A stretch of DNA of 64,000 nt from Pseudomonadota bacterium (GCA_021817985.1 JAKAFK010000001.1:8523-72522), one strand, 5' to 3'. Numbered from the stretch's first letter, positions 56,072 to 61,006 are shown. Made by a program: numbers and translations. The notes: generated by a model from the letters alone, not told the origin.

Positions 56072-56138
56072 GCCCAACGTTTTAATTCACTGGCCTGCGC
56101 AGCTTTTCGCGGGGGTCCGGTGGAATGATGGGTTGGGC
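56072..56138 (-). repeat. attC-like site 1 (distal end of cassette array)
   Basis: GCCCAAC (56072-56078) ... GTTGGGC (56132-56138), 67 nt, with imperfect internal dyad symmetry. Begins 17 nt after the stop of ORF 56155-56553. Confidence 0.75.
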
Positions 56139-56154
56139 ATCGGAGGCCGCCCAA

Positions 56155-56553
56155 TTAAATGTGAAAGACTTGCTGCACCCATGGGTCTGTGCCCTCGAAT
56201 GGACCGTGTACTGATGCCGTGCAGCCATGTAACGGCACTTTTCTTTCGATGGGGCCAATTTCCATCCAGTTTACGTACACGCGCCACTCGTTCACATCAA
56301 CGTCTTTGACGATGCCAATTGCCAATATGCTCATTTCGGCAGAGCCACGCCCTAGCATTTTCTTGACTGCGATACGGTCACCCGGCTCTATCTTACGGAA
56401 GCGTTCTTGTTGAACAGAGATCGAGTTTCCCTGTTCATTATTGTCTGGGGCAGTCGTGTTCACATCCCAGCAATACCAATACCCTCGCTTAAGAAACTGC
56501 GGCAGCACATCGTCCTTTCCGCCCCACATTGCGCCAACGACCCAATATTGCAT
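56155..56553 (-). CDS. Cassette-borne 132-aa protein, possibly a small beta-barrel (PUA/EVE-like) module
   Basis: ATG lies 7 nt after AGGAG. MQYWVVGAMWGGKDDVLPQFLKRGYWYCW...FRKIEPGDRIAVKKM..ILAIGIVKDV resembles the N-terminal reader-like modules fused to some restriction/McrB-type proteins. This is from memory only. Confidence 0.7.
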   Translation of the reverse strand: MQYWVVGAMWGGKDDVLPQFLKRGYWYCWDVNTTAPDNNEQGNSISVQQERFRKIEPGDRIAVKKMLGRGSAEMSILAIGIVKDVDVNEWRVYVNWMEIGPIERKVPLHGCTASVHGPFEGTDPWVQQVFHI

Positions 56554-56600
56554 TTGATGTCTCCTCTTATTTGCCGATGGACGGTGAGATTAACCAAGAT

Positions 56601-56669
56601 GCCCAACGTTCGAATTGAGCGGCCTGCCGCGGCTTTATGCGGCAGATCCGCTCGAATGAAGGGTTGGGC
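56601..56669 (-). repeat. attC-like site 2
   Basis: GCCCAAC ... GTTGGGC, 69 nt. Inner arms are CTGCCGC/GCGGCAG and GAGCGG/CCGCTC with bulges. Starts 1 nt after the TGA of ORF 56671-57372. Confidence 0.8.
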
Positions 56670-56670
56670 G

Positions 56671-57372
56671 TCATGTAGCCTCCGCGAGAGCAATGGTTAC
56701 CTCTTGGCTCTCGTTTGAGCCGAAGTCCACGATCCATGCAGAACGCGGGTCGTCGAGAGACTTCGGATCGTCTGGATTTGACCAGTCGAGTTGTACAACT
56801 ACGTGGTGCCACAGCAGCTTGCGGAGAAACTCCAGTCCGCGAGTCACTTCCGCTGGTGCCTGGACATACTTCGCGCGCTCTGCTTCAACTTGCGCTCCAA
56901 AATCTTCAACGAGCGGACTCTTTCCATGCATGTAGCCACCGCATAGTTCGTACATCTCAATTAGCCGCCCGTGATTAACGTTGATTTGGGCGCGATCAAA
57001 ATGCACATGGCCGGAATCTTGACGGGTGGCCTTTGCAATAGGGATCGGGAGAGCATACGGGCTGAGGGAAACCAGTCGCTTGAGAATCTCGGGGGCATGC
57101 CAGTCCTTAGACGGGTCCCCATGGTCCCTTTGGTTTTGTTGGCGTTGCTGTTCGCGATGCTTCCCATATCGTTCTTCTTCACGAATCATCGCTGAAAAAG
57201 CAATTGCCTCGATGACTCGACGAATCTGTAGAAAGCAGAACTCCATATCCAGCGAAGGTAGGCCGCTCAGCGAACGCGAAGAATTGGACACCTTCTCCGC
57301 GGCAAGGAGGCGCAACTTGGCTTCAGCCATGCAAGTATGGTAGACCTCGTGTTGTGGAACCTGCTTAGTCAT
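56671..57372 (-). CDS. Cassette-borne 233-aa orphan protein
   Basis: The ATG at 57372 lies 9 nt inside the cassette boundary. The ORF-track start at 57453 would read through the attC-like site. No recognisable domain. Confidence 0.6.
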   Translation of the reverse strand: MTKQVPQHEVYHTCMAEAKLRLLAAEKVSNSSRSLSGLPSLDMEFCFLQIRRVIEAIAFSAMIREEERYGKHREQQRQQNQRDHGDPSKDWHAPEILKRLVSLSPYALPIPIAKATRQDSGHVHFDRAQINVNHGRLIEMYELCGGYMHGKSPLVEDFGAQVEAERAKYVQAPAEVTRGLEFLRKLLWHHVVVQLDWSNPDDPKSLDDPRSAWIVDFGSNESQEVTIALAEAT

Positions 57373-57381
57373 TCGTGTGAC

Positions 57382-57451
57382 GCCCAACGTGGAAGTCACC
57401 GGACGCTGCGCGGCTTTATCGCGCAGCGTCCGGTGGACTGCCGGGTTGGGC
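57382..57451 (-). repeat. attC-like site 3
   Basis: GCCCAAC ... GTTGGGC, 70 nt, with a perfect 16-bp inner stem CACCGGACGCTGCGCG/CGCGCAGCGTCCGGTG. Confidence 0.8.
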
Positions 57452-57759
57452 ATAGGCGAACTGCTGCATGGCTTTGACCACGGAAGCTACTGCGGCAGGT
57501 AAGCGTACCTCCGACAGTGCATGATCTTTGATCGAGCCAGCCCACCCTGGGGAAGACTTCTCCCATTGAAGAAATTGCTCAAAGGTCAAGATGTCCTGTC
57601 TAACGAGATACGCGTTCAGAACGACAGCGGGAAGCCTTTCCTTAATGAAGTGCTCAGAGTGGGGTGCATGCCTACACCACGCAATTAGAACTTGAGCCAT
57701 TTCTTCAAAGCGGCCGTCTTTAGATAACTTGCGACAGACGTCGAGCACCGGACCGCTAG

Positions 57760-59284: not shown

Positions 59285-59452
59285 GGCTTTTCTCCTTTCC
59301 GCCGGATTTGGCTGACTTGCGTTTGGTATTTCCCGCGCCCGGAGGAGTTGAACCTCCTGAGCGATTTCCTTCGACTACGATGATTATTTGTGAATAAACA
59401 CGGTAGCTCTGGTCGTCGTTCCGTCCGCTCCTATGTTGCCTCCTTGGTAGAT

Positions 59453-59518
59453 GCCCAACGTGGAGTTGAGCTGCCTGCGCGGTCTTTCGCGCGGGTCAGC
59501 TCGAACGCAGGGTTATGC
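59453..59518 (-). repeat. attC-like site 4
   Basis: GCCCAAC ... GTTATGC, 66 nt. Inner arms are GAGCTG/CAGCTC and CCTGCGCG/CGCGCGGG. Begins 14 nt after the TAG of the FRG gene. Confidence 0.75.
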
Positions 59519-59531
59519 GTCGTGGCCAACA

Positions 59532-60302
59532 CTAAAGCCAAGATACGTGCTCCGACTTGAGATGGCGGGCCAAACCGTCGAGGTCAGGAAAGACCGAGAA
59601 CTCATTAACACCCGCAAGTGTCAGGAATGAAATGGCGTCACGTAAGCAATTGGGCGGCAGCTCAAACTTGCGAAGGCACTCACCAGCAATGCTTTCCAGC
59701 GGGGTGAATAGATCGCTGTGTAGCGTAAATACACTTCGCTGCGCGGACTGGCGTGGGCTATGTTGAGGCGGCATGATCGCAACAGCACGGGCACCAATTG
59801 CTTTTGTGCCTTCGATGAAGTTCTCCTGATAGTTGCCCTCGAAATCTGTATAGGGGTTCGCAATGGATGGGTCGCCCTGTTCACGGCGGTTCAGTTCGAA
59901 TGCGTCAAGAATCCAGATGCAAGGGCGAACGGCAGGAATAGAAACTTCAGGAAAGTCTCGAGTGGCGAGGTAAGGACGAATAGCGAAGTACAGCGACGTG
60001 GAAAACGTAGTAGTCCAATCTAAGAGCCGCGTGGGAAGTCCGTGATGCTGCATGGCGAATAGGACTTCCCACGAGTCTGCATTTCGGCGAAGCATGCTCC
60101 CGCCGAGCGACGAGAAGTCGTAGTACAGAATGCCCTCGATGTTCTGCTTCTTGAACTTGTCGGGTGCTTGCCGTCCAAGGCCACATAGCAATGGCCAACG
60201 GCTGTTACTATGCCCGCGGAAGAACGGCATGTCACATCCTGAGTCAGCCAAACCGCGCATGTGATCTTGGACGCCCTTCACGAACTCGGACCATTCAGTC
60301 AC
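59532..60302 (-). CDS. Cassette-borne FRG-domain protein
   Basis: Has the eponymous motif ..CDMPFFRGHSNSRWPLLCGLGR.. followed by ..LFAMQHHGLPTRLLDWT... The GTG start lies 6 nt after GGGAGA. Confidence 0.75.
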   Translation of the reverse strand: MTEWSEFVKGVQDHMRGLADSGCDMPFFRGHSNSRWPLLCGLGRQAPDKFKKQNIEGILYYDFSSLGGSMLRRNADSWEVLFAMQHHGLPTRLLDWTTTFSTSLYFAIRPYLATRDFPEVSIPAVRPCIWILDAFELNRREQGDPSIANPYTDFEGNYQENFIEGTKAIGARAVAIMPPQHSPRQSAQRSVFTLHSDLFTPLESIAGECLRKFELPPNCLRDAISFLTLAGVNEFSVFPDLDGLARHLKSEHVSWL

Positions 60303-60317
60303 GGAGTATCTCCCGAC

Positions 60318-60379
60318 GCATAACGTTTGAGTTCAGGGGCGCGCCGCCGATAGGCGGAGCATGCAACGAAAGGTTAGCC
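60318..60379 (-). repeat. attC-like site 5 (most degenerate)
   Basis: GCATAAC ... GTTAGCC, 62 nt. Inner arm is GCCGCC/GGCGGAGC. Begins 6 nt after the TAA of ORF 60385-60873. Confidence 0.55.
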
Positions 60380-60384
60380 CTCGC

Positions 60385-60873
60385 TTAGAGCAGCACACGC
60401 TGAAGTATCTCAACGAGAGCTTGATGCAAAGAACCTTCTGTAACGTCCTCGATTCCGACCTTTTCAGCGGGGCCGCTTTGTCCTCCACGACCAGGAGCCA
60501 TGGTGCTCTTGTAAAGCGTGACCATGCCGGAATATTTCTCGCATGACACCATGAGATGAGGATATTCAGATTGCCGCCGATTACCTTCGTCGCCAACTAA
60601 GAAGGCAATGGCGATTGAAGCCGACTGAGTTTGATGTTTGTCTATGGGCTTCTCTTCTTTCTCTTCGATTCGACATTTGATGCCCCGCGCTTCGACGCTT
60701 TTGGCAAAGGATTCGAACGCAGGCCGAAATACCTTGGCGCAGCGCTCCACGAACTGAGACAGGAACGCTGCCTCTTTCTCTTCTCGCTCAGTTCTAACTT
60801 GGCGTACGTGTTCCTTCTTCGCATCGTGAGCGGCGAATAACTCGGCCAACTGTCTTTCAACATTCTTGTCCAT
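60385..60873 (-). CDS. Cassette-borne 162-aa protein with a charged coiled-coil-like N-terminus
   Basis: First ORF after the putative attI. MDKNVERQLAELFAAHDAKKEHVRQVRTEREEKEAAFLSQF... No recognisable domain. Confidence 0.6.
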   Translation of the reverse strand: MDKNVERQLAELFAAHDAKKEHVRQVRTEREEKEAAFLSQFVERCAKVFRPAFESFAKSVEARGIKCRIEEKEEKPIDKHQTQSASIAIAFLVGDEGNRRQSEYPHLMVSCEKYSGMVTLYKSTMAPGRGGQSGPAEKVGIEDVTEGSLHQALVEILQRVLL

Positions 60874-60890
60874 GAAGAGACCCCTGAGAG

Positions 60891-61006
60891 AGCTAACTGT
60901 AAGTAGACAGAACTATTCAAATGTATGCAGGAGGGTGTTCTGTACAAGCCGTCCCGATATACTGTAACCAGCTGATTCCAAAGTTGCGACGATTTTATCA
61001 TGTCAA
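60891..61006 (-). promoter_or_regulatory. Candidate attI crossover core and cassette promoter region
   Basis: On the minus strand, GTTAGCT (revcomp of 60891-60897) lies 17 nt upstream of the first cassette ATG. TTGACA (revcomp 61001-61006) is followed directly by TGATAAAAT (revcomp 60992-61000), an extended -10-like element pointing into the array. Confidence 0.3.

Follow-up and report, generated by a model that had tools for sequence, protein, structure and literature searches.

A probable integrase-less array of integron gene cassettes in an uncultured betaproteobacterium

A stretch of 64,000 nucleotides from a Pseudomonadota bacterium (GCA_021817985.1, JAKAFK010000001.1:8523-72522), here called the window and numbered from its first letter, contains five imperfect palindromes in a row between positions 56072 and 60379, each at or near the end of a minus-strand open reading frame (ORF). 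This raises the question whether the palindromes are integron attC sites and, if so, to what kind of element they belong. A reading made from the sequence alone had proposed a chromosomal integron array with five attC-like sites. Covariance models, folds, the lack of dispersal of the repeat and a comparison of the locus across genomes all support a cassette array, and the five palindromes are in all likelihood genuine attC sites bounding five gene cassettes, accompanied by a sixth, decayed site that had not been noticed. The proposal of a chromosomal integron did not hold in the same way: no gene for an integron integrase (intI) is detectable nearby, and the element is therefore very probably a CALIN-type array (attC sites clustered without an integron integrase) and not a complete integron. 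It is made up of five intact attC sites and a decayed one, with five ORF-bearing cassettes and one short unit without an ORF, all read on the minus strand. This kind of element is already well known and common; the present array is an undescribed instance in an uncultured betaproteobacterium.

Anatomy and recognition of the attC sites

When 54.5-62.5 kb was re-read, the coordinates and end sequences that the sequence-only reading had given for the five sites proved correct to the base. On the plus strand, attC1 (56072-56138, 67 nt), attC2 (56601-56669, 69 nt) and attC3 (57382-57451, 70 nt) run from GCCCAAC to GTTGGGC, attC4 (59453-59518, 66 nt) from GCCCAAC to GTTATGC, and attC5 (60318-60379, 62 nt) from GCATAAC to GTTAGCC. 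The perfect 16-bp inner stem claimed for attC3 was returned by a repeat finder (57397-57412 with 57420-57435, 100%), and so were the arms described for attC2. The heptamer GCCCAAC by itself is not enriched in the window, with 18 copies against 12.7 expected. Inverted pairs of it spaced 60-70 nt apart are, in the window, confined to this array, and for that reason the palindromes are more than a product of chance.

By definition, the bottom strand of an attC site carries 5'-RYYYAAC-3' (R') and 5'-GTTRRRY-3' (R'') with invariant AAC and GTT (PMC5027507). The criteria also included an extrahelical G at position 16, a T at position 23 or 24, a 6-bp stem between the two and a variable terminal structure, with a total length of 57-141 nt, a range in which the 62-70 nt of the present sites fall. 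The plus strand was numbered from its 3' end according to the bottom-strand convention of the same publication. In this numbering, attC1 to attC4 read R'' GTTRRRY (1-7), a 5-nt spacer (8-12), a 3-nt L box (13-15), G16, a 6-nt stem (17-22) and T23, and the attC sites of aadA2 and aadB in a real class 1 integron gave the same read-out position by position. The L boxes of sites 1 to 5 form the 3-bp pairs ATT/AAT, ATT/AAT, AGT/ACT, GTT/AAC and GTT/AAC, and they are separated from the R boxes by unpaired spacers of 5-6 nt on both arms. AAC and GTT are kept in five of five sites; the full RYYYAAC/GTTRRRY consensus is found at sites 1-3, with single core deviations in attC4 (GTTATGC) and attC5 (GCATAAC/GTTAGCC). 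The mean column identity of the five-site alignment is 77%, attC2 being the most canonical and attC5 the most divergent member. One earlier assignment had to be reversed: the 5' GCCCAAC had been taken for R'', but the plus strand is the recombinogenic bottom strand, so that this heptamer is R', the crossover site. It follows that the cassettes read along the minus strand, as the ORFs do.

As single-stranded DNA, the plus strand is more stable than the minus strand at all five sites, and at four of them its fold is better than those of all 200 shuffled sequences, with z-scores from -3.1 to -10.1 (attC1 -3.1, attC2 -5.6, attC3 -10.1). G16 is present in sites 1-4 and in the decayed site, and is unpaired in sites 1-4; T23 is unpaired in attC1, attC2 and attC4, present in attC3 in a paired state, and absent from attC5. 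Folding of the bottom strands, which had been proposed as a check, therefore showed extrahelical G16 and T23 with the 6-bp stem between them.

Two covariance models were used for recognition of the sites. The first, R1, was built from the five sites of the window, where it matched these sites, their weaker reverse strands and a further segment at 55878-55946 (19.4 bits, E 0.004), and nothing else. For comparison with class 1 integrons, intI1 was located in plasmid records with an IntI1 query (100% match to the annotated intI1 genes) and twelve regions were taken. Here R1 detected the attC sites of aac(6')-Ib (37.3 bits, E 2e-8) and blaVIM-2 (22.3 bits), both on the intI1-coding strand, as the geometry of the window would lead one to expect by analogy. 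The second model, R2, is independent of the window and was built from 12 distinct class 1 attC sites (aadA2, aadB, gcuF, aac(6')-Ib, blaVIM-2, dfrA12, dfrA27, dfrA5, arr-3, aac(6')-29a, aac(6')-29b and one unnamed), those longer than 72 nt being trimmed to their outer 30+30 nt. With filters off and both strands of the 64 kb searched, R2 recovered the five sites at their exact coordinates, at full length and on the plus strand, with 27.9-43.8 bits and approximate E-values of 3e-10 to 1.6e-5 (attC1 33.2 bits, E 4e-7; attC2 43.8 bits, E 3e-10; attC3 31.2 bits, E 1.7e-6; attC4 34.7 bits, E 1.5e-7; attC5 27.9 bits, E 1.6e-5). It also matched 55882-55946 (20.4 bits, E 0.0026), and nothing else in the 64 kb fell below E=5 on either strand. 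Detection thus works both ways, R1 finding class 1 sites and R2 the sites of the window, and the attC covariance model test suggested for this locus was passed by all five sites with the class 1-trained substitute.

The additional match is attC0 (plus strand, 55878-55946 with R1 and 55882-55946 with R2), the decayed terminal attC that closes a unit of about 195 bp without a convincing ORF. It has kept R'' (GTTGGGC), the L box and G16, has lost the 5' R' box (GCGGATC) and is 81% identical to an attC match in the metagenome contig L126. At the opposite end of the array, the proximal boundary of cassette 5 was read from the sequence as AGCTAAC at 60891-60897 on the plus strand (GTTAGCT on the cassette strand). 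It may be what is left of an attI or of an attC since lost. Sequences of attI are specific to their integrase; neither R1 nor R2 gave a match at these positions. A seventh site at 55734-55815, where GCTAAC lies at the stop codon of a DUF2789 gene, was considered but rejected, having no GTT partner and no model match.

GC-rich hairpins just past stop codons could also be intergenic repeats resembling repetitive extragenic palindromic (REP) sequences or miniature inverted-repeat transposable elements (MITEs), or else transcription terminators, and would then be unrelated to integrons. We give almost no credence to this explanation. The repeat is not dispersed: there are no further copies in the 64-kb window, and R2 had no match at E<=0.1 beyond the window in 1.18 Mb from 80 related genomes, which answers one of the checks proposed earlier. 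The palindromes have no T-tract, and a terminator scan returned 9 sites against 6.7 expected, one of them touching an attC. Furthermore, the class 1-trained model recognises the palindromes strand-specifically, and the same palindrome family adjoins intI genes in other contigs.

These other contigs came from a metagenome scan with the exact pattern GCCCAACGT-N44-60-GGGTTGGGC, which gave at least 120 stretches, and 80 loci (388 kb) were examined. R2 found 181 sites at E<=0.01 in them, arranged in one-strand arrays, examples among the loci listed being L165 (18 sites), L138 (15) and L133 (13). A hidden Markov model (HMM) built from 69 IntI proteins identified integron integrases in L132, L133, L138 and L166, among the 80 loci listed. 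In these four contigs intI lies on the same strand as the attC-model matches and downstream of the array, which is the canonical divergent arrangement of intI and cassettes. The third site of the window, attC3, is 92-96% identical to sites in many metagenomic contigs, and attC1 up to 91%; the cassette bodies of the window had no match to those contigs. Over 112 distinct sites of the family, those of the window included, AAC and GTT are invariant. In an alignment fitted to the model, 94.8% of the cells are paired, against 71.6% in shuffles, with 528 compensatory cells against 176 and a covariation score of 0.554 against 0.145 in shuffles and at most 0.10 with slid partners.

Boundaries and cargo of the cassettes

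Cassette limits were set at the crossover points between A and C of AAC. On the minus strand, the body of cassette 0 extends between attC0 and the crossover of attC1 (55947-56077) and has no convincing ORF; the sole candidate, of 52 aa (55799-55957), runs through the decayed site and had no family match. Cassette 1 (56078-56606, 529 bp) contains an ORF of 132 aa (56155-56553), cassette 2 (56607-57387, 781 bp) one of 233 aa (56671-57372), cassette 4 (59459-60323, 865 bp) one of 256 aa (59532-60302) and cassette 5 (60324-60896, 573 bp) one of 162 aa (60385-60873). Cassette 3 (57388-59458) measures 2071 bp, or 749 bp without an insertion sequence (IS) and one target duplication. The array thus consists of cassette-sized units with co-oriented ORFs and an attC directly after each ORF. 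On re-measurement, the earlier description was confirmed for the shared orientation, for unit lengths of typical cassette size (529, 781, 749 without the IS, 865 and 573 bp) and for the position of the stop codons, which lie 16, 1, 13 and 5 nt before sites 1, 2, 4 and 5, the ORF of cassette 3 overlapping attC3. The lower GC content was equally borne out, with 0.52-0.54 in the cassette kilobases versus about 0.63 in the window; the kilobase that contains the IS has 0.64.

The protein of cassette 1 had no match in Pfam, NCBIfam or PADLOC. A homologue with 84% nucleotide identity lies between two attC sites in L007, L008 and L009, and the homology begins directly after the R' GTT. The upstream cassette differs in these three loci, and the attC upstream of the homologue resembles attC3 of the window, not attC2. 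Right after the attC of the homologue in L007 (10476-10510), the R' core GTTGAAC occurs in about five tandem copies, which may be a trace of repeated recombination or of slippage at the crossover site.

The protein of cassette 2 matched a PHROG of unknown function (phrog_13799, 2e-17), and 74 homologues were found. Its AlphaFold (AF2) model has a predicted local distance difference test score (pLDDT) of 94 and no significant match in the PDB; a resemblance to HEPN toxins was weak (E about 1) and is not claimed. In L225 (8001-8765), and also in L226, a homologue with 67% amino acid identity is solitary between the housekeeping genes thiG and yaeQ, away from any array, and carries its own attC of 52 bits. 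Other homologues are located in islands and have no attC. One of them, in L227 (8001-16705; 61% amino acid identity, no attC), lies beside HSDR_N, Eco57I-type restriction-modification, ThsB-TIR and NACHT genes. This neighbourhood looks like a defence island and hints at a role in defence. Cassettes 1 and 2 are both found elsewhere with other attC neighbours, as is expected of cassettes that move independently.

In cassette 3 the ORF is interrupted by the IS into a C-terminal part (57416-57759) and an N-terminal part (59082-59181), the latter overlapped by an upstream ORF of 46 aa (59144-59284), all on the minus strand. Removal of 57760-59081 restores a single ORF of 147 aa, for which no family match was found. 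The inserted element is a minus-strand member of the IS5 family (57760-59077, 1318 bp), with a transposase gene at 57909-58997 (DUF772 and DDE_Tnp_1; NCBI name IS5 family transposase), terminal inverted repeats CAGGMTGCTGAAAAAC and a flanking 4-bp CTAG target duplication (57756-57759, 59078-59081). It has inserted into the coding part of the cassette and not into an attC. An interrupted attC was observed elsewhere, in a class 1 integron on a Raoultella plasmid (L017, 2620-4650), where a group II intron (ltrA) interrupts the site at its R'' end.

None of the cassette proteins had been credited with an obvious function by the sequence-only reading. This stands for cassettes 1, 2, 3 and 5, which against Pfam, NCBIfam, PADLOC and PHROGs gave a single match, the PHROG of unknown function mentioned above, but not for cassette 4. 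The protein of cassette 4 contains an FRG domain (PF08867, 1.4e-19), matches phrog_4962 (2e-20) and, over nearly its full length, the PADLOC phage-defence candidate PDC-S15 (PDLC04938, 1e-40). It is thus a candidate anti-phage protein of the FRG/PDC-S15 type, as judged from these profile matches; PDC-S15 has itself not been characterised for anti-phage activity (PMC12482510). Cassette 5 encodes a member of a widespread uncharacterised family (270 cluster representatives at E<=1e-3), and its AlphaFold (AF2) model (pLDDT 96.7) shows a long N-terminal helix, a five-stranded sheet and a C-terminal helix, with no PDB match better than E 0.17.

Environmental cassettes typically carry a cargo of this sort, here one candidate anti-phage protein and four proteins without an assigned function. 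It is conceivable, though unlikely, that one or more of the uncharacterised cassettes encode a new stand-alone anti-phage or toxin-like function, the main candidates being cassette 5, for its confident fold prediction without a solved relative, and cassette 2, for the homologues found among restriction-modification, ThsB-TIR and NACHT genes. If so, the integrase-less array would serve integrons with attC sites of this family as a live reservoir of such genes. Whether the cassettes are expressed is uncertain, because no promoter resembling Pc, the cassette promoter of integrons, is evident: in a promoter scan of the window promoter-like sites were not enriched, and no sigma-70-like site was found upstream of cassette 5.

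The integrase, the island and the origin of the array

The IntI HMM had no match at E<=1 in six-frame translations of the window and of L001, which reaches 6.3 kb past the window end, and gave 700 bits with the positive control L011. Accordingly, intI was undetectable over 55 kb to one side of the array and over about 9 kb to the other. The definition of a CALIN asks for two or more attC sites that share a strand, are spaced by less than 4 kb and have no intI in their vicinity (PMC4889954); here there are six model matches on the plus strand, the largest gap is 2.0 kb, and no intI was detected.

The array could alternatively be a complete integron that has degraded in place, with an ORF of 35 codons at 61000-61107 (plus strand) as the 5' stump of intI and 60897-61000 as the old attI. 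This ORF is divergent from the cassettes and begins about 100 bp beyond the GTTAGCT boundary, which is the position and orientation of the intI start in four metagenomic arrays of the same attC family. By eye, its LMEVVRQHIRAKHYG resembles the LLDQVRDKLRVKHYS motif of those IntI N-termini, and the full IntI HMM places the 35-aa peptide at profile positions 4-31. However, this alignment scored -3.8 bits, with an E of about 2 in a six-frame search of 4.2 kb, and the peptide had no match in NCBIfam, in the PDB sequences or in a word search of 5.8 billion proteins, nor by BLASTP against IntI1 or tblastn against the IntI-bearing contigs. A dedicated N-terminal HMM of 21 positions did not find it anywhere in the window, and no DNA similarity to the attI/intI regions of the related arrays was found. 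As the start of IntI, the ORF failed every statistical test, and we consider the degradation of a complete integron at this place very unlikely. A second candidate, a recombinase fragment at 61236-61451 on the minus strand, was examined as an inverted C-terminus of intI and rejected: it matched generic XerC-type profiles only, at E about 1e-3, and not the IntI HMM.

The surroundings of the array were compared with those in L023, the closest other species in the genome collection (88% amino acid identity on the flanking ATP-grasp protein). L023 is collinear on both sides, and blastn homology jumps from window position 62793 to 55728, so the whole of 55729-62792 (7.06 kb) is absent from it, as is 54248-55280. 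The same locus is found in the metagenome-assembled genomes GCA_027438265.1, GCA_028064455.1 and GCA_027349375.1, labelled 'Betaproteobacteria bacterium', the copies being at least 99.98% identical. An invariant, syntenic locus had been named as a result that would speak against a cassette array; instead, the array is missing as a whole from the closest species, and cassettes 1 and 2 occur elsewhere beside other attC neighbours.

The 7.06-kb island contains, in addition to the array, the recombinase fragment just mentioned, a ParE/ParD-like pair and an IS3 fragment. The recombinase fragment is the C-terminal part of a tyrosine recombinase other than IntI. In its box II, LLLRREKLESTVRCLG, the usual His appears to be replaced by Arg and the catalytic Tyr by Cys, and to judge by these residues it is a dead pseudogene beside the array. 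The ParE/ParD-like pair (61719-62485, minus strand) consists of a ParE-family toxin of 90 aa and an upstream antitoxin of 165 aa with PaaA2/ParC-like domains; it lies within the island and is not flanked by attC sites. A C-terminal fragment of an IS3-family OrfB is found at 62503-62745 (plus strand), and the segment at 54248-55280 that is also absent from L023 is an IS1595-family transposase pseudogene. The IS1595 pseudogene and the IS3 fragment flank the DUF2789 gene and the island, and the region is a mosaic of mobile-element debris. The DUF2789 gene itself (55465-55740, plus strand) is kept in the closest species, where homology ends at 55728, so that the inserted island provides the final four codons and the stop codon. 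Neither an Rfam nor a tRNA scan of the window gave a match, and a tRNA-linked island boundary is therefore absent.

The position of the array amid such debris suggests that it arrived, or decayed, together with foreign DNA. This bears on a further alternative, in which the array was never beside an integrase here, and the cassettes were added one after another, at a secondary GTT site, by an IntI encoded elsewhere in the genome or by a transient plasmid. Serial insertion in trans is one of the published CALIN origins, CALIN formation at secondary sites being documented (PMC4889954; bioRxiv 10.1101/2022.09.11.507474). It would fit the lack of a detectable intI pseudogene at the locus, and the lone cassette of the cassette 2 family that L225 carries between thiG and yaeQ shows that such insertions happen. 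Nevertheless, the mobile-element mosaic in which the array is embedded includes a recombinase pseudogene, an IS3 fragment and a toxin-antitoxin pair, and the decay of the distal attC suggests age more than a recent series of insertions. We therefore regard this origin as unlikely.

For an array that was parted from its integrase, established integron biology suggests the following course. Each unit would once have entered as a circular cassette, inserted by the tyrosine recombinase IntI, whose substrate is the folded bottom strand and whose crossover falls between A and C of AAC. Later the integrase and attI/Pc would have been lost from the array or separated from it, probably in the same rearrangements to which the recombinase pseudogene and the IS fragments alongside are due. 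If an integrase were provided in trans, the four canonical sites could still take part in excision or capture.

Several points weigh against the array being an integrase-less set of attC-bounded cassettes. The fold of attC5 is weak (z -1.7, no better than 14 of the 200 shuffles), and this site has a C at position 16 instead of G16 and no T23, while attC0 is without the AAC crossover triplet. The E-values of R2 are rough, owing to the trimmed long sites and a shortened calibration, and the alignment used for covariation, fitted to the model, favours the structure. No cassette gain or loss was seen within the species, all of its assemblies with the locus carrying an identical array. The intI searches covered the window and L001, and an intI elsewhere in the source genome is possible. 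Recombination at the attC sites is itself suggested by sequence and structure.

Significance and comparison with known systems

The locus adds one more documented integrase-less cassette array in an environmental betaproteobacterium, with an attC family of the GCCCAAC type common to it and to large metagenomic arrays that still carry IntI. No concept of integron biology is changed by it, and what is still of interest is the uncharacterised cargo. Defence functions encoded by integron cassettes have already been described (bioRxiv 10.1101/2024.07.02.601719). The practical value of the array is a small set of cleanly delimited, mobile, uncharacterised genes for anti-phage or toxin screening, which includes the FRG/PDC-S15 candidate and a family of at least 270 clusters without a structural relative.

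In comparison with known systems, the sites share with REP palindromes and bacterial interspersed mosaic elements (BIMEs) that they are GC-rich imperfect palindromes after genes. Unlike these, they are not dispersed: they are confined to one array, where their spacing is that of cassettes. They also show strand asymmetry and conserved extrahelical bases, and the attC model recognises them. With class 1 attC sites (aadA2, aadB, aac(6')-Ib, blaVIM-2) they have the same architecture in common, comprising R' RYYYAAC, unpaired central spacers (UCS) of 6 and 5 nt, a 3-bp L box, G16, a 6-bp stem, T23 and R'' GTTRRRY. The R boxes differ, being GCCCAAC/GTTGGGC here and RTCTAAC/GTTAGRC in class 1, as do the inner stem sequences, and the cargo is not antibiotic resistance.

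Sedentary chromosomal integrons, such as the array of Vibrio cholerae repeats (VCR) and those of Xanthomonas, are likewise chromosomal, with attC sites similar to one another (77% mean column identity here). The present sites also resemble those of other arrays of the same family (up to 96%), and the cargo is of unknown function. In contrast to sedentary integrons, there are only 5-6 cassettes here, with no detectable integrase and no evident attI or Pc, and the locus is a species-specific island and not a conserved locus. The closest agreement is with CALIN elements, which have on average five attC sites, mostly no recognisable intI pseudogene and few known cassettes (PMC4889954). The array comprises two or more attC sites that share one strand at distances below 4 kb, with no intI in the vicinity, its approximately five sites equal the reported CALIN average, and it has no recognisable intI pseudogene, as in 95% of CALIN elements. 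Its cargo is mostly of unknown function, without antibiotic resistance genes, and it is associated with an IS; in nothing essential does it differ from a CALIN.

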